Shown: in pieces, positions 1-13,179 of the stretch | Position numbering within the stretch: the stretch's first letter is position 1 | Layout of the letters: each line of letters starts with the position of its first letter | Source of the DNA: Desulfurococcaceae archaeon | GTDB taxonomy: Archaea > Thermoproteota > Thermoprotei_A > Sulfolobales > Desulfurococcaceae | Direction of reading: 5' to 3' | DNA length: 17,698 bases | Assembly (NCBI GenBank): GCA_038888155.1 | Contig: JAWAJB010000018.1 | Coordinates: 1 to 17,698 of the forward strand | Translations under genes and position numbers: made by a program | Notes under the pieces: generated by a model | What the model was told of the DNA's origin: nothing | Databases searched by the model: none | Seen by the model: only the letters and a program-made list of their open reading frames with translations

Positions 1-209
1 TGAAGATAATTGCCGGAATCCTGAAGCCCACAACCGGGAAAATATACCTGAATGGCGAGGAAGTTAGATTCAAGAGCGCCGCCGACGCCATGGCAAGAGG
101 AATAGCCATGACACACCAATTCCTTGATGAGCAACTAGTGGAAATAGCCAAGGTGTGGGAAAACTTCTACATGGGAAGAGAAGTGACGAAAAAAATAGGG
201 CCGCTGAAA
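1..209 (+). repeat. Inverted repeat, left arm (partner 2838..3040)
   Basis: 1..127 is the exact reverse complement of 2914..3040, and 146..209 is the exact reverse complement of 2838..2901. The blocks are separated by a divergent 18-nt versus 12-nt patch. The arm may extend upstream of the window. Confidence 0.97.
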
Positions 210-620
210 CTACTAGACATATTTAACATGCGCAAAATAACGAAGGATATAATCAGCAATTATCATCTGGGATTTGACGAGATTAGAGAGATCAGGGAGT
301 TATCTGGAGGTCAGCGCCAATTGGTTGCTGTTACTAGATCAATCGAATCTGAGCATGCTTTTAAAATATCTTTGAAACTTTTACTTCTTGATGAGCCGTA
401 TACGGGTCTTTCGGTTCGAGTTTTCAACGAAATCTGCTCTAACATAAGAAAATTGGCTCAGGAAGGCGTATCGGTAATAATTGCCGCGCAGTGGTTTGAC
501 ATGATAGAAAAAGTAATTGATGAAGTTGCTGTGATGAGGCTTGGACGTATCGTCGGGAGATTCAGCAAAGATGAAGTCGATAAACATATGATCTACAAGC
601 TCGCTATAAGCGGCGCATAA
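1..620 (+). CDS. Sugar ABC transporter ATP-binding protein (single NBD), 5'-truncated by the window edge
   Basis: The frame is open from base 3 (KIIAGILKPTTGKIYLNGEEVRFKSAADAMARGIAMTHQF...), so the ATG at 90 is internal. Q-loop THQ, signature LSGGQRQ and Walker B LLLLDEP are present, and the H-loop reads AAQW with no His. Walker A would lie just upstream of the window. Confidence 0.92.
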   Translation, partial: KIIAGILKPTTGKIYLNGEEVRFKSAADAMARGIAMTHQFLDEQLVEIAKVWENFYMGREVTKKIGPLKLLDIFNMRKITKDIISNYHLGFDEIREIRELSGGQRQLVAVTRSIESEHAFKISLKLLLLDEPYTGLSVRVFNEICSNIRKLAQEGVSVIIAAQWFDMIEKVIDEVAVMRLGRIVGRFSKDEVDKHMIYKLAISGA

Positions 621-640
621 CACCTCTTCTCAATCAACTT

Positions 641-2371
641 TCAATATCTCTTCGGCAGCCATCTCCACGTGTCATCTATAGCAACTTTTTCATAATCTCT
701 TCTCAACTCCTTGCCAAGCCTCAATTCAAGCTCCCTAGCTTCTTTATGCATTTCCTCTAAAACTTCTTTATCTTCATACTTTTTTCCAAATTTCTTTTTA
801 GTTACGAACACATCATCTATTCTCAGTATCATTAAAGCCGCTTCGACTGATGTTTTAATAATATTTTCTTTGATGGATGCAGGCTCGAACACACCTGCAT
901 TGCGCATATCGGCAATTCTAGCGTTTAAGACATCTACTCCAAAAGTTCTCCTGCCTTCTTGATGCAATGCTTTTAGCTCGGCTAATGTCGTTATCGGGTC
1001 TAATCCAGTACTCCTAGCTAATTGAACCGGAATCTCCTCCAAAGCCTCCGCAAATTTTTGCACAACTATCTGCTCCTTGCTTTTTATCGAATATGCATAA
1101 TCTTCTAAACCAATAGCTAGGTCGATTTCGATAGCTCCGCCTCCATATACTATTCTCGTATCTCTGATGACGCTTCTAGCGGCGTAAAGCCCTTTCTTAA
1201 TCGATTTCTCTGCCTCTTCAGCAATAACGCGCCCCGCGCCTCTAACCACGATGCTTATAACTTTGCTGTTGTCGCCGCATCTTACTATAATCATCTTATC
1301 GTCTCCGAATTTGACTTCTTCAACGCTTTCGGCGAATCCTAAATCATTTGCTGTTACCTCCTCAGGATTGGAGATTATCTTTGCTCCGGTTGCATAGGAA
1401 ATTTTTCTCAAATCGAACTTGCCAGCCCATCTGATCGCCATCGCATTATTCCTGGCGAAGTATCCAAGCACTATGTCATCGATGTTCTGCGATGATATGA
1501 TGACGTTTGCCCCCGTTGCTATTATTTTTTCCGCGATGTTTTCCAGAATTCTTCTTCTCTGCATCATTATCTGTTGAACATGTTGTGGTGACGTTAGTAA
1601 GGCTTTAAAATTTCGCTCAATAAACTTAGCTTGATTTAACGCAATTGGGGTATTCAGAAGGACTATTCTCGCATTCTCGATTTTTTTCGGCATGTTTGGG
1701 TCTAACCCTTTCTTCTCCAGCACTACTCCATGAATAAGGCAGCTATCTCTCAAGTAGCCACCTTTGACATTGATTATTTTAACGCGATCCAAATCTAGAT
1801 CAAACTTACAATCATTAATTGACATTGCCTTAATTACTGCATCAAGTAGAACTTTGCTAAGCCATTCAGCATCATCTGCTTGACTTTGCTTGATTGCAGT
1901 CTTTATTATGTTCCTTAATATCTCCTGCTGAGAAAGTGATATCTGGATTGATAGTTTTTCGCGTATAAGTTCGATCGCTTTACTCAGTGCTTTTTTGTAT
2001 CCATCGATTATGATTGCTGGATGAATGCCTAGTTTGATAAGTTCCTCTGCTTTCGATAAAAATTCTCCAATTAGTAGAACGGTGGATATACATCCATCAC
2101 CGAATTCTATTTCCTGCGCTCGAGCTGCTTCTATCATCATCTTTACTACGGGAGGCGATATTTCCATCATGTCGAGCCAGCGAAGTATCGTTCCACCATC
2201 ACTTGTCGCCACTAGATCATTTAAGTCCATGAGAATTAGCTTTTTCATCCCGAGGGGCCCTAACGATGTCTTTACCAGATCAGCGAGAATTTTGCACACT
2301 CTAATATTGCTTAGCATAATTTCCATATTTCCGTCTTTCCGCAAACTTGCATAGCTTTGGCTGTTGCTCAT
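641..2371 (-). CDS. Thermosome / group II chaperonin (TCP-1/cpn60 family) subunit, divergent, with degenerate ATPase motifs
   Basis: 576 aa with group II chaperonin landmarks in order: TSLGPLGMKK, TSDGGTIL, GIHPAIIIDGY, LIHGVVLEK, MPKKIENARI, ATGAKI, IVVRG, VYGGGAIE, FAEALEEIP, GVFEP, LRIDD. Canonical GDGTTT reads GDGCIS. Confidence 0.95.
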   Translation of the reverse strand: MSNSQSYASLRKDGNMEIMLSNIRVCKILADLVKTSLGPLGMKKLILMDLNDLVATSDGGTILRWLDMMEISPPVVKMMIEAARAQEIEFGDGCISTVLLIGEFLSKAEELIKLGIHPAIIIDGYKKALSKAIELIREKLSIQISLSQQEILRNIIKTAIKQSQADDAEWLSKVLLDAVIKAMSINDCKFDLDLDRVKIINVKGGYLRDSCLIHGVVLEKKGLDPNMPKKIENARIVLLNTPIALNQAKFIERNFKALLTSPQHVQQIMMQRRRILENIAEKIIATGANVIISSQNIDDIVLGYFARNNAMAIRWAGKFDLRKISYATGAKIISNPEEVTANDLGFAESVEEVKFGDDKMIIVRCGDNSKVISIVVRGAGRVIAEEAEKSIKKGLYAARSVIRDTRIVYGGGAIEIDLAIGLEDYAYSIKSKEQIVVQKFAEALEEIPVQLARSTGLDPITTLAELKALHQEGRRTFGVDVLNARIADMRNAGVFEPASIKENIIKTSVEAALMILRIDDVFVTKKKFGKKYEDKEVLEEMHKEARELELRLGKELRRDYEKVAIDDTWRWLPKRY

Positions 2372-2412
2372 ATTTGCCCACGAACCTCTGATATCACTTA
2401 CTAAGCCTTGGA

Positions 2413-2430
2413 CTTTAAGTTTTTTATTTT
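2413..2430 (-). promoter_or_regulatory. Putative archaeal BRE/TATA promoter for the chaperonin gene
   Basis: The minus strand reads AAAATAAAAAACTTAAAG, a purine-rich BRE-like run followed by a TTAAA box, about 42 nt before the ATG at 2371. Confidence 0.4.
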
Positions 2431-2438
2431 TGCAATAT

Positions 2439-3188
2439 TCATGAAAGCGTACCGAGCATATAGGCTATAATATCATCTATAGTTAGTTGCTCGGCAGGTC
2501 CGTAGAATACTTTTCTTCCTTGCCGAAGCACCATTATATCATCACTTAAGTACTTTACTAAGTCCAAGTCATGGCTCACCACTATAACTGTGATGCATCT
2601 CTCCCTATTAATTCTCTTGATGAAATCCGCGACCTTTTGCCTTCCCTCTATAGAGAGAAATGTAAAAGATTCATCGAGTAATAGAATTTGTGGATTCGTA
2701 TCAACTGCTCTAGCAATAGCGAGTATTTGGCGTTCCTCTCCTGTCAGTTTTCCAACTTCTTCATCAACATTTAGGTTCACACCATATTGTGCTAAGGTCT
2801 CCTTAACCTTATTTCTCATATAAGCTACATTCAACATTTTCAGCGGCCCTATTTTTTTCGTCACTTCTCTTCCCATGTAGAAGTTTTCCCACACCTTGGC
2901 TGTTTCTACAAGCTCAAGGAATTGGTGTGTCATGGCTATTCCTCTTGCCATGGCGTCGGCGGCGCTCTTGAATCTAACTTCCTCGCCATTCAGGTATATT
3001 TTCCCGGTTGTGGGCTTCAGGATTCCGGCAATTATCTTCAGCAGCGTCGACTTGCCGGCGCCATTATCGCCAACGAGGCCGAGAATCTTGCCGCGCTCAA
3101 GCTCGAAAGAAACATCCCTCAAAGCCTCAATCCTACCAAAATACTTCGAAACATTCTCAACACGCAGAGCGACATCTGGCTTAACCAT
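2439..3188 (-). CDS. Sugar ABC transporter ATP-binding protein (single NBD)
   Basis: Walker A GDNGAGKST, Q-loop THQ, degenerate signature LTGEERQ, Walker B ILLLDES, H-loop VSHD. 249 aa, typical of single-domain CUT2 ATPases. Confidence 0.95.
   Translation of the reverse strand: MVKPDVALRVENVSKYFGRIEALRDVSFELERGKILGLVGDNGAGKSTLLKIIAGILKPTTGKIYLNGEEVRFKSAADAMARGIAMTHQFLELVETAKVWENFYMGREVTKKIGPLKMLNVAYMRNKVKETLAQYGVNLNVDEEVGKLTGEERQILAIARAVDTNPQILLLDESFTFLSIEGRQKVADFIKRINRERCITVIVVSHDLDLVKYLSDDIMVLRQGRKVFYGPAEQLTIDDIIAYMLGTLS
2838..3040 (-). repeat. Inverted repeat, right arm (partner 1..209)
   Basis: Its reverse complement matches 1..127 and 146..209 base for base. Confidence 0.97.
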
Positions 3189-3297: not shown

Positions 3298-3328
3298 TTC
3301 AGATCTAATAATGAAAAAACCGATATTC

Positions 3329-4366
3329 ATGAGCGATGCTAAAGGGCTTAAAAGCAACAAAAGAAGCTCGGCTACAATAAGTAACACAAGTAGCGTCATG
3401 GCATCGGAGAAAGTGCCTGTCATGTCAACTTTAAAAAGCTTTGTGACGCACTATTCAACATGGTTTCTGCTGGCGGGATGCTATTTAGCGTTTGGCGCCG
3501 CATTCCCAATACTATTGACCGTTGAATCGTTCTGGAATATGCTTGTCCAGGGAACGACCGTAGTATTGCTGTCGATTGGAATGACGTTCGTTATGTTGAC
3601 AGGCGAGATAGATCTATCTGTGGCATCAGTTGCGGCTCTCTCGGCTCTCTTCGGTCTATATTGTATCACCGAGCTAAAGCTTCCAGGGTATATAGCTTTA
3701 CTATCAATAATACTGCTTGGCGCGATAGTTGGAGTGATCAACGGATTACTTGTTACGAGAATTAGAATACCATCGCTCGTGGCGACTGTTACCACCTGGT
3801 GGATGATCGCAGGAATAGTCCTTCTTTGGACGCAGGGTAGATCGCTAACTGGTTATGATGATTATTGGACTTATATAGGGATGGGAACTATAGGTCCCAT
3901 GAGGGTTGTGCTGTTATTCCTCATAGTGCTGATTATAATCGCGGTGATCATTGCGAGGCGGACGGTCACGGGCCTGAGAATTTACATAGTTGGCGGCAAT
4001 CCCGAGGCGGCCAAAAATATGGGAATTTCTGTCGAAAAAATTAAGACTATTGCATTTGTTCTATCCGGAATTTTCGCTGCTCTAGCCGGCTACACGCTTT
4101 CCTCAAGACTGGGGTTCGTATCTCCCGTTTTTGCAACGGAATGGCTCATGCCGGCCATAGCTGCACCTGTGATCTCGGGAGTGAGCTTAAGAGGAGGACG
4201 CGGCAACCTCATAAACGTTGTTGCTGGTGCATACTTGGTACAGCTAATAGTGTTGATAGTAAGAATTGGCGGCCTTGGAGGATACTTCTATCAGCTCGCA
4301 CAAGGATTACTGATATTCATCGCCGTTATCGTTGACACAATCAGGAGAAGAATTATGGGAGTGTAA
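3329..4366 (+). CDS. Sugar ABC transporter permease (RbsC/BPD_transp_2 family)
   Basis: Multi-TM protein with GMTFVMLTGEIDLSVAS, RIPSLVAT, the EAA loop GGNPEAAKNMGI and GVSLRGGRG. Start uncertain (3311, 3329 or 3398). Confidence 0.94.
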   Translation: MSDAKGLKSNKRSSATISNTSSVMASEKVPVMSTLKSFVTHYSTWFLLAGCYLAFGAAFPILLTVESFWNMLVQGTTVVLLSIGMTFVMLTGEIDLSVASVAALSALFGLYCITELKLPGYIALLSIILLGAIVGVINGLLVTRIRIPSLVATVTTWWMIAGIVLLWTQGRSLTGYDDYWTYIGMGTIGPMRVVLLFLIVLIIIAVIIARRTVTGLRIYIVGGNPEAAKNMGISVEKIKTIAFVLSGIFAALAGYTLSSRLGFVSPVFATEWLMPAIAAPVISGVSLRGGRGNLINVVAGAYLVQLIVLIVRIGGLGGYFYQLAQGLLIFIAVIVDTIRRRIMGV

Positions 4367-4420
4367 TCCGCGCGACCGAGATTATTCCCAGAAAAGTGAC
4401 TTTTTATGTAATCGCAAATC

Positions 4421-4427
4421 TTTTATA
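4421..4427 (+). promoter_or_regulatory. Putative TATA box for the binding-protein gene
   Basis: TTTTATA about 38 nt upstream of the ATG at 4465, preceded by CGCAAATC. Confidence 0.4.
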
Positions 4428-4464
4428 CAACTCGCGGGGAAGGATATAGCAAGGGCTTGAGATC

Positions 4465-5943
4465 ATGTCGGGAGAAAAAACTTCAAGGAGGACTGCGCTT
4501 AAAGTTGCTGCGGGCGTCATCGGTGGACTTGTTGTGGGTGGCGTAATAGGGTGGTTAAGCAAGCCTGTTGCTGAGGCCGTTAGAACAGTGACCTCGACGG
4601 TCACCACTACTGTAGCAGCCCCTGGCGCCGCAACCGTAACAGTTACTCAGCCCGCTACAACCATCAGGGAAACAGTCACGGTAACAGGCACTGCTATTCC
4701 ACCAACGGAGTTTAAGAATGGAGGCACAGTAACGCTAATAATGGGCTACCTTGGAGAATACTGGTGGTACACGTGCGCAAAGTACTTTGAGCTTGCAGTG
4801 AGCAAAATACCTGACCTACACGGAAGGCGTTGGAAGTTCGTTCTCGATACCGCTGAGGGATCAGATACGAGGCAATCAGAGATGATCGAGACATACGCGC
4901 AGAAAAGCGACTTATTGGTGGTTAACGCAGTTAGCATCGATGGAGTAAATACGGCTGTGAAAAAAGCAGAGGAGACGTATCACTGCCCGGTAATACCGGT
5001 AAAGGATATAATTTCCGGCAGGGGAAGATTCCAGATAGAGTTCTCTGACTTCTGGGCTTCTTCCTCGATGGTTGATGACGCCGTTGACTGGATGCGCAAG
5101 AAATACGGCACCGCTGAAGGAAAAATATTGCTCGCCCAAAACGGTGATTTATCATTTAGAGGATGGCTCTATAGATATATAGGATTTAGGACATGTCCGG
5201 AAAAGTATCCAGAAGTTGATTTCAAGGAATTCATTGGAGGAGTATCTCCAGAGGGCTGGGCTGATGCAGCTGACGCATTCATCTCCACCACAACACCAGA
5301 TGCAATAGTCTCGGCTAGCGATGGCCCCTACCTAGTGGGAACACTTGAGGCTCTTGCAAGATATGGCAAGCTATACTATGTAGGTAATCCTGAACATATA
5401 TTCGTTACGAGCATTGATGGAAAGCCGTCAGCTTCGATGTGGGTGAGGAAAGGCTATACGGACTCCGTTTACCCGCAGTGCCCGGACGCAATCTACTTCT
5501 CCACATGGGAAATAGCACGGCAATATATAATTAAGGATGCATCCTATCAGCAAGCACCGTATTCAATGCCGGAGATACCGCTACCGCTTGCATGGAGGCA
5601 GCCTAAAGGGACGTGGTGGGGTGGCGAAGACAAATACTTGGTAATTGATAAGGTGGATTGGTCCGAAACACCCTCTGGCCAAGCTCCAGGTTATAGAGTA
5701 ACGCCGGACAATGTTAACACATGGGAGATGTGGGGTAATCTGGTTACAGTTCTCCTAGGTAAAGAGGCTTTGCAGGATAAGGAGTTCCCAGCAAAAGGTA
5801 CACCACCTCCATGGAGTGCGCGGCTTGTTGAGGAGTACATTAGATGGTGGGAGAGCGTAACCGGCAAAGACTACAGGACCGCTGAGATCGAGAAGCCGCC
5901 TATACCGCTTGAGCAGCTAGAATGGCCTCCTAGGTGGAAGTAG
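4465..5943 (+). CDS. Sugar ABC transporter substrate-binding protein, Tat-exported and membrane-anchored (type I periplasmic binding fold, divergent)
   Basis: N-terminal SRRTALK twin-arginine motif, a hydrophobic helix and a Thr/Val-rich linker (TVTSTVTTTV...TVTVT). RbsB-like segments AEGSDTRQSEMIE, DLLVVNAVS and IFVTSIDG follow. Adjacent to the permease. Confidence 0.88.
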   Translation: MSGEKTSRRTALKVAAGVIGGLVVGGVIGWLSKPVAEAVRTVTSTVTTTVAAPGAATVTVTQPATTIRETVTVTGTAIPPTEFKNGGTVTLIMGYLGEYWWYTCAKYFELAVSKIPDLHGRRWKFVLDTAEGSDTRQSEMIETYAQKSDLLVVNAVSIDGVNTAVKKAEETYHCPVIPVKDIISGRGRFQIEFSDFWASSSMVDDAVDWMRKKYGTAEGKILLAQNGDLSFRGWLYRYIGFRTCPEKYPEVDFKEFIGGVSPEGWADAADAFISTTTPDAIVSASDGPYLVGTLEALARYGKLYYVGNPEHIFVTSIDGKPSASMWVRKGYTDSVYPQCPDAIYFSTWEIARQYIIKDASYQQAPYSMPEIPLPLAWRQPKGTWWGGEDKYLVIDKVDWSETPSGQAPGYRVTPDNVNTWEMWGNLVTVLLGKEALQDKEFPAKGTPPPWSARLVEEYIRWWESVTGKDYRTAEIEKPPIPLEQLEWPPRWK

Positions 5944-8881: not shown

Positions 8882-9346
8882 TCAACTTTTAAACCTGTCT
8901 TTAAACTCCACCCTACTGACACTTATAGTAGTAGCATCACATAGTCTGAATGTGGCCCATACGAACCTCATCGGTATAATACCGGTGTTATAGGTTACAT
9001 GGTAGCTCCCAGCCGGAATATATACAGCGTCGCCCTCTTTCACTGGAAATCTCTTATCATTTATTTGCATTTCGCCCCTACCCTGAATGTAGAAATAGAC
9101 TTCTTCTAAGTCCGGATGAGCATGCCCAGTAGTCCTTCCCCAGGGATATACTATTGTGTGTCCAAAGCTTAATCTCCTAGATGGAGAATTCTCTGGGATA
9201 ATCAAGTAATAGGTCTCACGCAGTATCCTGATTTCCTCAAGCCCAAGGACTTTCCTAAAAGAATTTTCGCTCGAATCATGTTCCAATTCATGAATGTTTA
9301 CGATGAAATTGTGCTGCATCTTTTTATAGCGTTGAGAAGATTTCAT
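8882..9346 (-). CDS. Cupin domain-containing protein (metal-binding)
   Basis: Cupin motif 1 TTGHAHPDLEEVYFYIQGRG and motif 2 GDAVYIPAGSYHVTYN. The start is probably 9346 or 9319 rather than 9415, judged from the paralogue at 12781. Confidence 0.88.
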   Translation of the reverse strand: MKSSQRYKKMQHNFIVNIHELEHDSSENSFRKVLGLEEIRILRETYYLIIPENSPSRRLSFGHTIVYPWGRTTGHAHPDLEEVYFYIQGRGEMQINDKRFPVKEGDAVYIPAGSYHVTYNTGIIPMRFVWATFRLCDATTISVSRVEFKDRFKS

Positions 9347-9457: not shown

Positions 9458-9724
9458 ATGCCCTATATAGCTCAAGAAGAGCGCAAGGAACTTGATCCAT
9501 TTGTTGATAGGCTCATAGAAGTTCTGAAAAAATCCTCTCCCGATAGGCTTGATGCCAGGCTAAACTACGTGGTCTATAAGATGCTTGTAAGACTATACGG
9601 CGATAAATATTTTGATTATAACCGCGCGATGGGAGTATTGAATTGCATTGCTCATGAATTTTATAGAAGAAGAGTAGCCACCTATGAGGATCGAAAAATC
9701 CAAGAAACGGGAGATATAATCTAA
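9458..9724 (+). CDS. Small conserved hypothetical protein (resembles the DUF6899 family)
   Basis: The pattern MPYI...LNY...GVL..EFYRRRVATYEDRKIQETGD matches a small helical family recalled as DUF6899. The family name is from memory and needs an HMM check. Confidence 0.75.
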   Translation: MPYIAQEERKELDPFVDRLIEVLKKSSPDRLDARLNYVVYKMLVRLYGDKYFDYNRAMGVLNCIAHEFYRRRVATYEDRKIQETGDII

Positions 9725-10019: not shown

Positions 10020-10682
10020 ATGTTTTCTAGAAAAGTGCCGTTTGCGGGAGTGAGGAAAGCGATCACTCAGAGACTTAGCCCCGGCTTCCATCAAGCTCTA
10101 CCTGTGGCATTGATGATGGAGTTTAAAGCGGATCCGCTTCTAGATCATAGAAAGCAGAGAGGCAGGCCATCAATCACCTCATATGCTGTTAAAGCAGCAG
10201 CATTAGCGCTTAAAAAGTACCCAGATATGAATGTCACGTTTGAAGAAGGGGAGCTCATTTACCATGATGAAGTTAACATCGCTGTTGGAGTACATACTCC
10301 TAGGGGCTTAAGAGCGCCCGTGATCAGAAATGTAGACAAGATAACTTTGAATGAGCTCACAAGAATCATTGACGAATTTGCGGAGAAAGGTGAGAGGGGA
10401 GAAATAACATTAGCTGATCAGGAAGGCCACAGCTTCACGGTGACAAATCTCGGCATGACCGGTGTAACTCACTTCACACCAATAATCAATCCACCAGACT
10501 GCTCGATACTTGGCTTGGGCGCGATAATCGCAAAGCCAATAGTAGTAGACAATAAATTAGAGTTAGGTAAAGTGGGCCACCTAACATTAGTTTTCGACCA
10601 CAGAGTTATTGATGGAATGCCTGCCTCAATTTTTCTAGGCGAAATCAAGAGATTATTAGAGAATCCAGTCGAGCTGGAATGA
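10020..10682 (+). CDS. Dihydrolipoamide acyltransferase (E2) catalytic domain only
   Basis: VPFAGVRKAI, VNIAVGVHTPRGLRAPVIRN, SFTVTNLG, FTPIINPP and the catalytic DHRVIDG. It has its own GAGGAG ribosome site at 10005..10010 and no lipoyl or E1/E3-binding domain. Confidence 0.93.
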   Translation: MFSRKVPFAGVRKAITQRLSPGFHQALPVALMMEFKADPLLDHRKQRGRPSITSYAVKAAALALKKYPDMNVTFEEGELIYHDEVNIAVGVHTPRGLRAPVIRNVDKITLNELTRIIDEFAEKGERGEITLADQEGHSFTVTNLGMTGVTHFTPIINPPDCSILGLGAIIAKPIVVDNKLELGKVGHLTLVFDHRVIDGMPASIFLGEIKRLLENPVELE

Positions 10683-12780: not shown

Positions 12781-13179
12781 ATGGGTCGAGAGGCAAGAAA
12801 AGAATATAGCTTGGTGAACATTAATGAAGTTGAGCCAGATACTTGTGATCGATCCCTAAGATATCATACGAAGGATAGGAAGGGTCAGGTTCTTCGAGAT
12901 ACCTATAGGCTGATTGAGCCGGGAAAGACTCCGTCGCAAAGGCTTACTCTAGGATATACAATAGTGTATCCTGAAGGAAGGACTACAGGGCATTCGCATG
13001 AAGATATGGAGGAGGTATATTTCATAGTCCAAGGGCGTGGAATAATGGAGATAGATAATGAGCGCTTTCCGATAAAAGAGGGCGACGCATTCTACGTCCC
13101 ACCAGGGAAATATCATGTAACCTACAATACGGGAATATTACCGCTAATAATCGTATGGGTTACTGGTAAAGTTGGCTAG
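12781..13179 (+). CDS. Cupin domain-containing protein (metal-binding), paralogue of 8882..9346
   Basis: TTGHSHEDMEEVYFIVQGRG and GDAFYVPPGKYHVTYNTG. Collinear with the other cupin. Confidence 0.92.
   Translation: MGREARKEYSLVNINEVEPDTCDRSLRYHTKDRKGQVLRDTYRLIEPGKTPSQRLTLGYTIVYPEGRTTGHSHEDMEEVYFIVQGRGIMEIDNERFPIKEGDAFYVPPGKYHVTYNTGILPLIIVWVTGKVG

Follow-up and report, generated by a model that had tools for sequence, protein, structure and literature searches.

A conserved chaperonin-like protein lacking the catalytic aspartates of group II chaperonins, encoded beside a sugar importer of hot-spring archaea

The locus

The window analysed here is a whole contig of 17,698 nucleotides (nt), JAWAJB010000018.1 of assembly GCA_038888155.1, corresponding to contig C18 of bin G000, which was deposited as a Desulfurococcaceae archaeon. 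Near its left end lies gene T (positions 641..2371 including the stop codon, minus strand), the subject of this study, which encodes a 576-amino-acid (aa) protein (P0001) recognized as a degenerate group II chaperonin by its Pfam match, its predicted structure and Foldseek. A previous sequence-only reading had described T as a probable ATPase-dead thermosome paralogue embedded in a sugar-transport locus. The results presented below indicate that T has lost the residues for ATP hydrolysis, is maintained by selection, and is linked to the genes of one importer in two deep lineages.

Directly upstream of T is the gene of a 249-aa single-domain ATP-binding cassette (ABC) ATPase, here called B (2439..3188, minus strand), and convergent with T is the 3' part of a second ABC ATPase gene, A (3..620, plus strand). 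These single-domain ATPases, a BPD_transp_2 permease (3311..4366, plus strand, profile match) and a 492-aa Peripla_BP_4 binding protein (4465..5943, plus strand, profile match) make up an importer of the CUT2 type. The other genes of the locus encode a xylose-isomerase-like TIM barrel protein, a xylulokinase, two cupins, an aldehyde dehydrogenase, the E1 alpha and E1 beta subunits, an E2 catalytic domain, a transaldolase-like protein and a 2-hydroxyacid dehydrogenase. The sugar-transport setting was thus borne out: the genes are those of sugar transport by an ABC system and of the catabolism of pentoses, together with E1 alpha and beta and the E2 catalytic domain.

Fold and family assignment

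T matched Pfam Cpn60_TCP1 (PF00118) with 477.1 bits against a cut-off of 34.3, profile positions 1-489 of 490 being aligned, and matched solved thermosomes in HMMER with E-values of 1e-95 to 1e-120. The AlphaFold2 (AF2) model of T, made from a 48-row alignment, had a predicted local distance difference test score (pLDDT) of 84.1 and a predicted template modelling score (pTM) of 0.78, and showed three domains with lid helices. In Foldseek, the target-normalised template modelling (TM) scores against the Thermococcus, Thermoplasma, Methanococcus and Sulfolobus chaperonins (thermosome, Mm-cpn and TF55) were 0.84-0.94, with 0.87 for 1q2v, 0.93 for 1a6d_B and 0.94 for 4xcd. By these two analyses T has the equatorial, intermediate and apical domains together with the helical-protrusion lid, and it also keeps two further elements, the IDDV strand at the C-terminus and the stem-loop hairpin with its strands 44-47 and 53-56. 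A clade-specific C-terminal extension of 52 residues (644..799, minus strand), with the invariant core L-x-L-G-x-E-L-R-R-D-Y-E...T-W-x-W-x-P, was predicted with low confidence to form a helix at residues 534-566; a protein atlas search with residues 522-576 gave no usable match.

Among the NCBIfam models, T exceeded the cut-offs for thermosome_alpha (490.1 against 450) and thermosome_beta (476.4 against 400), which accounts for the annotation of its relative P0002 as 'thermosome subunit alpha' in public records, and fell below that of the subfamily model TIGR02339 (475.9 against 671.1).

The T clade was monophyletic in three trees, with support of 95-100 in the Shimodaira-Hasegawa-like approximate likelihood ratio test (SH-aLRT), and had a stem of 1.15-1.44 substitutions per site. 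These trees were quick maximum-likelihood IQ-TREE runs with SH-aLRT support only; L011, which has a truncated start, was excluded from all of them and L028 from the first alignment. The Sulfolobales gamma subunit was considered as an identity for T and rejected, since the gamma clade (SH-aLRT 99) lies inside the alpha group as sister of Sulfolobaceae alpha and has intact motifs, while T stands outside on its own stem. The phylogeny proposed earlier as a check therefore separates the T clade from gamma and shows it to be distinct, but does not fix where its stem joins relative to the alpha and beta groups and the other long branches, a placement that is prone to long-branch attraction.

Replacement of the catalytic residues

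All motifs given in this section lie on the minus strand. In HMMER alignments with solved thermosomes, GMKK of T (2240-2251) lies under GM(N/D)K, which places K43 (2243..2245) at the first catalytic Asp (Asp1, canonical GMDK), and GDGCIS (2084..2101) lies under the phosphate-binding GDGTT(T/S), with D92 retained. At the second catalytic Asp (Asp2), K392 and K393 align under the two Asp residues of 'IDDAL' and K393 under the Asp of 'INDAL'; the K393 codon (1193..1195) is part of EAEKSIKKGL (1187-1216). K393 is 17 residues from GGG in T, as is its counterpart in the canonical subunit L001, and since the HMMER alignment and this spacing agree, K393 was assigned to the position of D386 in Mm-cpn. 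We take K393 to be the equivalent of GroEL D398, and K43 that of the D52-type Asp of GMDK in GroEL.

A clade-specific insert of three residues, RWL (2174..2182), is followed by SPPVV in place of the canonical (Q/E)HP(A/V)A. In the nucleotide-sensing-loop region (KQSQ, 1880..1891), a 41-row alignment table showed that the canonical Lys at aligned position 163 is changed to Ser or Asn, Ser in the case of T, and that a Lys occurs two residues earlier instead. The role ascribed to this loop follows PMC5220055 and background on chaperonins. The segment QRRR (1550..1561) makes the lid basic, in a lid that carries another three-residue insert, and the nucleotide-pocket motif GGGA (1133..1144) is kept. 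The hydrolysis apparatus of group II chaperonins, consisting of GDGTT, the two Asp residues and the sensing-loop Lys, is therefore not found in T. The motifs of the earlier reading (GMKK, TSDG, GDGCIS, QRRR, EAEKSIKKGL and codon 1193..1195) proved exact in letters and coordinates, and the 576-aa frame is open as it had described.

Conservation and selection

A search of 5.8 billion clustered proteins returned four close relatives of T, with 98, 81, 76 and 57% identity, and the next match had no more than 43%. Lys or Arg at Asp1, Lys at Asp2, Cys or Gly followed by Ile in the P-loop and the displaced sensing-loop Lys were found in all five members of the clade and in none of 116 canonical hits; these 116 other proteins, listed in the same search, all have Asp, Asp and Thr-Thr at the first three sites. 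Among the canonical rows of the 41-row table, which includes five Sulfolobaceae third subunits, Asp2 was present in 35 of 35 and Asp1 in 34 of 35, the remaining row being L011, whose trimmed open reading frame (ORF) does not include the Asp1 motif. The proposal that a group II chaperonin homologue has had its hydrolysis residues replaced thus holds for the whole clade.

The five members also share a Pro where HP(A/V)A has its His, with the adjoining insert, an N-terminal region that is eight residues shorter and lacks PVLILKEG, the lid insert, and the 52-residue extension with its invariant core. The lid, normally acidic, was confirmed to be basic, with a net charge of +3 or +4 in the clade against -3 to -7 in canonical subunits; the isoelectric point (pI) is 8.3-9.1 against 5.2-5.7. 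On the adenosine side of the pocket, GP, (N/S)DG, D92 and GGGA are invariant in the clade, and the apical domain and lid are as well conserved as the rest of the protein. One sign of loss named earlier, TSDG (2195-2206, minus strand) for canonical TNDG, has to be dropped as uninformative, because two clade members keep TNDG and because TSDG also occurs in canonical subunits of the Bathyarchaeia type and in the first paralogue (p1) of genus g156.

The ratio of nonsynonymous to synonymous substitution rates (dN/dS, omega) of T was 0.10 (NG86) or 0.18 (YN00) for L024 and L025, the only unsaturated orthologue pair (94% amino-acid identity), and 0.04-0.17 for five neighbouring genes. Between the window and L024 it was 0.055-0.08, with saturated dS. 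L027 was excluded from these calculations; its T orthologue (3634-5360) is split by a frameshift near an ambiguous base N, probably a sequencing error. Because these ratios resemble those of neighbouring genes, T is under purifying selection and is not decaying, which answers the dN/dS check that had been suggested. That T might be a relic in decay or a product of faulty assembly, for which its long branch, its rarity and its short contig, one that ends in a repeat and comes from a chimeric bin, could be cited, is scarcely credible: the frame is intact in the window, L022-L026 and P0002-P0005, with a frameshift only in L027 near the N, omega is low, and the stretch recurs in 20 runs from 11 studies.

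Mm-cpn D386A has its mutation at the position of K393. According to PMC5019054, this change alone abolishes hydrolysis, while the mutant still binds ATP, stays open and still assembles. Since D386A alone stops hydrolysis in Mm-cpn, and T has several site residues changed together, T would be unable to run the ATP-hydrolysis cycle. It is very improbable that T is still an ATP-driven chaperonin in which other residues have taken over catalysis; the strong purifying selection and the retention of D92, GP and GGGA would fit such a protein, but both general-base/Mg-water Asp residues, the two P-loop Thr residues and the sensing-loop Lys are changed together.

Linkage to the ATPase pair

Seven metagenome loci (L022-L028) were recovered, six of which belong to the T clade. 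The tandem of B followed by T with a 67-nt spacer was found in the window and in L022-L027, representing three lineages (100%, 76% and 57% identity). The gene order is flank X, B, T, A, permease in L024, L025 and L027, while in the window and L026 the B-T pair adjoins the permease, indicating that the B-T-A segment is inverted between lineages. Flank X includes lipoate-protein ligase genes (L024, 642-1770). The link to the ABC ATPase pair, for which a neighbourhood survey had been proposed, was found in every context recovered. The suggested link to the E1/E2 complex fared less well, its basis being co-location of the genes in longer contigs. The match of the E2 gene is confined to the catalytic acyltransferase domain (220 aa), and a DUF6899 ORF stands before it (9458-9724 and 10020-10682). 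The two cupin genes (8956-9163 and 12952-13159) are paralogues in inverted orientation whose DNA is 69% identical over 208 nt.

The full length of A, read from L022 (ATPase stretch L022 2381-3163), is 260 aa. A has the canonical signature LSGGQRQ and Gln for the H-loop His, whereas B has the degenerate signature LTGEERQ and a canonical H-loop His. From this complementary degeneracy and the rules for ABC motifs, A and B are predicted to pair as a heterodimer, a split CUT2 ATPase in which one ATP site would be consensus and the other degenerate. The 5' thirds of A and B are nearly identical and the 3' parts differ. In the window the 5' thirds form an inverted repeat, with one arm in A (1..209) and the other in B (2838..3040); positions 1-127 of the A arm are 100% and positions 135-209 96% complementary to the B arm (127 and 75 nt), and the likeness reaches about 3172 in other samples. 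Both types are kept across lineages, their shared 5' part being homogenised within each; the first ~115 residues of A and B evolve in concert within each lineage.

The repeats bound a 2.8-kb segment made up of the 3' part of A, T and the 3' part of B, and contig C18 ends at the repeat. In the 100%-identical lineage, C18 and L022 agree and L023 has the opposite orientation. This flipped form may represent an inversion switch or a mis-join, the latter because the near-perfect repeat measures about 330 nt; a real inversion would swap which ATPase 3' part, and T, stand behind which promoter. In Logan contigs the repeat is collapsed at about 2x depth, so that joints between flank and inner segment cannot be told apart and opposite-strand joints are no proof of inversion.

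The B-T spacer (2372..2438, minus strand) contains an A/T-rich TATA-like box (2413-2431) and GAGGT, both kept in three of the four B-T spacers; the plausible promoter noted earlier is present in these elements and is to be regarded as putative. One RNA-library contig spans the spacer (2301-2776) and others cover parts of T. These contigs are a weak hint of expression of T and no proof of transcription; the lack of RNA-run contigs over T at 736-1764 carries no meaning.

The position of T between two ATPase genes that would supply one consensus and one degenerate ATP site bears on a role outside protein folding, in which T would bind nucleotide and sense or regulate the activity of the ATPases of the importer, or would act as a scaffold binding membrane or nucleic acid, with the chaperonin fold serving as no more than a frame. 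The kept adenine pocket, in which the two Lys residues could hold phosphates without turnover, and the charge reversal to a basic pI are consistent with such a role. We nevertheless consider it quite unlikely, as the client-handling apical domain and lid are conserved to the same degree as the remainder of T and no precedent was found in the literature search. Complex prediction for T with ATPase B gave a score of 0.00, which in a run without controls is no answer and counts neither for nor against binding.

A sister family and a wider radiation

Protein P0127 was the top match of the clade profile beyond the clade itself to show T-like features. Its best non-self matches were P0391 (55% identity) and then the T clade (39%, P0004), ahead of canonical thermosomes. 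P0127 and P0391 share with T the Lys at Asp2, Pro for His (H73 to Pro), Trp315 and VYGGGA; their family has Tyr or Cys at Asp1 and lacks the long tail. T and P0127/P0391 grouped at 99 SH-aLRT in a tree for which 12 rows had been thinned beforehand, and T has all the features by which this superclade is defined here, namely Lys at Asp2, a Pro where HP(A/V)A has its His, Trp315 and (V)(Y/H/C)GGGA. On contig L028, the gene of P0127 has on one side a divergent ABC ATPase gene, which the contig end truncates, and on the other co-directional genes for a permease and a binding protein, whose products share 49% and 44% identity with their counterparts in the window. The linkage between this lineage of degenerate chaperonins and this importer has thus withstood deep divergence and a changed gene order. 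When 400 phylum genomes were searched for orthologues of P0127 none came back, and as the search had no positive control this result is uninformative.

Among the best 150 matches of the clade profile, 149 proteins were new (P0122-P0270). Twelve fall outside 480-620 aa and were excluded from the counts; of the other 137, 61 keep both Asp residues, 49 lack one and 27 lack both, in a sample drawn with a profile that favours degenerate sequences. As 76 of the 137 thus lack at least one catalytic Asp, T can no longer be viewed as a one-off. As far as the searches show, degenerate archaeal-type chaperonins are common and undescribed.

Several other divergent forms were noted. P0122 and P0123 each join two group II chaperonin modules head to tail in a chain of about 1050 aa, and the catalytic Asp sites are replaced in one or both of these modules. 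Many members of P0122-P0270 have long tails that are rich in Trp and Pro or carry (K/R)(R/E)(D/E)YG; the latter motif occurs in five otherwise different representatives and resembles RRDYE of T. Another divergent type, with GLEK for GMDK, HR(T/S)..D/N for ERS, a 581-aa frame and a His-rich tail, is present in L016 (7897-9498) and L017 (787-2403), from records labelled Nitrososphaeraceae archaeon and Thermoproteota archaeon. L016 and L017 were all that a peptide-pattern search of genome contigs returned, using patterns too specific to P0001.

Rarity and probable host

No orthologue of T was found in the 40 relatives searched, in 200 genomes of the class (best match 42% identity) or, at E<=1e-135, in 400 other genomes of the phylum. 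The clade profile, run against 1.84 billion representatives at 50% identity, found a single one, P0004, for the whole T clade. The DNA stretch itself was present wholly or in part in 20 of 22 listed public runs from 11 studies, nearly all of them labelled as hot-spring metagenomes.

Bin G000 measures 2.42 Mb with 6.4% contamination, against 0.9-1.5 Mb for its 16 genus-mates. With a control piece of contig C1, equal in size to C18, each of the 15 genus-mates compared yielded 6-16 collinear DNA matches, whereas C18 gave one marginal match in 3 of 15. The xylulokinase of C18 shares 98% identity with a protein whose label reads 'Candidatus Bathyarchaeia archaeon' and, over part of its length, 89% with one labelled 'Nitrososphaerota archaeon'. 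Its six best matches in the 400 phylum genomes (78-87%) all belong to g156, a genus of another class (1.0-1.3 Mb), and it had no match in 16 genomes of the bin's own family. The window from 10.7 to 17.7 kb has 72-90% DNA identity to g156 genomes; the left 10.7 kb, with T and the importer, had no real match in them. The main chaperonin of g156 groups with P0012, near sequences labelled Candidatus Calditenuis and Nitrososphaerota. Public labels on genes nearly identical to those of C18 are in conflict (Thermosphaera sp. and Bathyarchaeia archaeon).

Because DNA and protein matches of C18 point to g156 and not to the genus-mates, C18 is regarded as probably misbinned. Bin G000 is probably chimeric, consisting of a Thermosphaera-like genome and contigs of the Caldarchaeales-like g156, and the carrier of T is probably a Caldarchaeales-like archaeon with T in an accessory sugar island. 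The two canonical subunits on contigs C3 and C4 would belong to the Thermosphaera-like core and need not reside in one cell with T, and they were dropped as its housekeeping partners in view of the g156 matches of C18. It is accordingly unsafe to call T a paralogue of this genome's housekeeping subunits.

Each g156 genome has three chaperonin genes. The third paralogue, p3 (L065-L068), is basic and long-branched; it has lost Asp1 (GMSK or GMGK) and the sensing-loop Lys and keeps Asp2 and GDGTK.

The chaperonin complement of the probable host bears on whether T could be a non-catalytic subunit within the ordinary thermosome rings of the host, adjusting how asymmetric they are or which clients they take while the sugar island is being expressed. 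Parallels would be the Sulfolobus gamma subunit, which changes ring composition, and the low-activity subunits of CCT. The full fold, lid, stem-loop hairpin and IDDV strand of T are compatible with a ring, its basic lid and surface could pair with acidic canonical subunits, and the probable host lineage has three paralogues of which one already lacks Asp1. D386A subunits also assemble (PMC5019054). Against this stand the shortened N-terminal strand region that departs from the PVLILKEG consensus, a conserved 52-residue tail instead of a short acidic one, the long stem branch, and importer linkage in two deep families, which is not expected of a general ring subunit. On balance membership in ordinary rings is unlikely.

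The binding protein

Orthologues of the binding protein were found in the window (4465-5943), L024 (7260-8705), L025 (6990-8429), L026 (3-965) and L028 (3772-5289). They are 480-505 aa long, and all five begin with SRR(T/D/A)AL(K/G), SRRxALK in the window, which is followed in each of them by a hydrophobic anchor and a Thr-rich linker. SRRxAL(K/G) resembles the twin-arginine export motif. TatC was found in three of four g156 genomes searched. A Trp-rich C-terminal region extends about 145 residues past the Peripla_BP_4 match. At E<=1e-50 a single one of 401 phylum genomes contained the subfamily, namely the genome of the window, so that T and the binding protein are co-distributed, neither being found in any of the 400 others.

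Proposed function of T

The reading that we favour, tentatively and at a little under an even chance, is that T is a non-hydrolysing, chaperonin-like accessory dedicated to one unusual CUT2-type sugar ABC importer. It is built on three observations: the catalytic residues are gone, selection on T is purifying, and the gene linkage is conserved in two deep lineages; inability to hydrolyse ATP, the importer as client and a holdase or assembly mechanism would follow by interpretation. T would keep the three-domain thermosome fold with its built-in lid and probably an adenine-nucleotide pocket. Its most likely mode would be to hold or assemble one or more components of the importer independently of ATP, these components being the two ATPases (A and B, of one domain each), the permease and the large binding protein with its twin-arginine-like signal. 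One candidate client is the A/B pair, on account of the operon partnership of T with B. The other is the large binding protein with its RR signal, which would need to be folded before export.

A wider version of this idea, possible but doubtful in our view, is that the T/P0127 superclade is the archaeal counterpart of the BBS chaperonin-like proteins, acting without ATP to hold or mature the RR-signal binding protein or the A/B pair before export or assembly, and forming one branch of a wide hydrolysis-dead radiation, as yet undescribed, that includes tandem fusions.

Several points weigh against a dedicated importer accessory. The function and partners of T are read from sequences and predicted models. 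The linkage comes from few related hot-spring contigs, representing three T lineages and one contig of the sister family, and P0003 (81%) has no genomic context. The whole left half of the window forms an accessory island that related genomes lack, so that co-inheritance could partly be hitch-hiking. The kept lid, hairpin and IDDV strand fit ring assembly equally well. Finally, the kept pocket residues show that nucleotide still matters, and slow or unconventional turnover is possible.

Comparison with known chaperonins

Group II chaperonins are usually regarded as obligate ATP-driven folding machines. T resembles archaeal thermosome alpha and beta subunits in its full-length domain, three-domain fold with lid, 36-43% identity, and GP, D92 and GGGA. 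It differs from them in the change of both Asp residues to Lys, in the P-loop Thr-Thr and the sensing-loop Lys, in its basic pI, short N-terminus, two three-residue inserts and 52-residue tail, and in the location of its gene within a transporter locus. The Sulfolobales gamma subunit is, like T, an extra and more divergent paralogue in thermophilic members of the Thermoproteota, but the five copies compared (L039-L043) keep all catalytic motifs and score 558-570 bits to PF00118 against 477 for T.

To our knowledge, the only well-known group II relatives with degenerate hydrolysis motifs are the eukaryotic BBS/MKKS proteins. BBS6/MKKS, BBS10 and BBS12 are, like T, degenerate paralogues derived from group II chaperonins, and are the closest functional analogy. 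They are regarded as assembly factors and not as folding machines, and as not forming rings of the CCT kind (PMC2846930). They differ from T in being eukaryotic and CCT-derived, in having large insertions and in serving the BBSome, and the likeness is one of functional analogy only.

Mm-cpn D386A, of which structures 3j02 and 5w74 were among those listed in the structure searches with T, is a laboratory point mutant of a homo-oligomer, whereas T has at least five concerted natural site changes. Chlamydiae GroEL2 and GroEL3 are extra paralogues with degenerate ATP-site residues and have 'variant chaperonin' models of their own in NCBIfam. They differ from T in being bacterial and group I, and T matches their models with only 29 and 15 bits.

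The sequence-only reading knew of no such arrangement in archaea, and our search of the open full-text literature likewise turned up no account of an ATPase-dead thermosome paralogue in archaea. Divergent subunits of Methanosarcina acetivorans were reportedly described by Maeder et al. in 2005. In PMC5220055, archaea are described as having one to five subunits, all assumed to form hexadecamers.

T is a natural archaeal protein that has lost the hydrolysis apparatus of its family and yet is strongly constrained. Its gene linkage, shared by two families, gives a concrete candidate client system, a single ABC sugar importer, and opens the question of what the chaperonin fold is capable of without an ATPase cycle. 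The sequences further suggest that many more pseudo-chaperonins may exist in uncultured archaea, at present annotated as 'thermosome subunits'.

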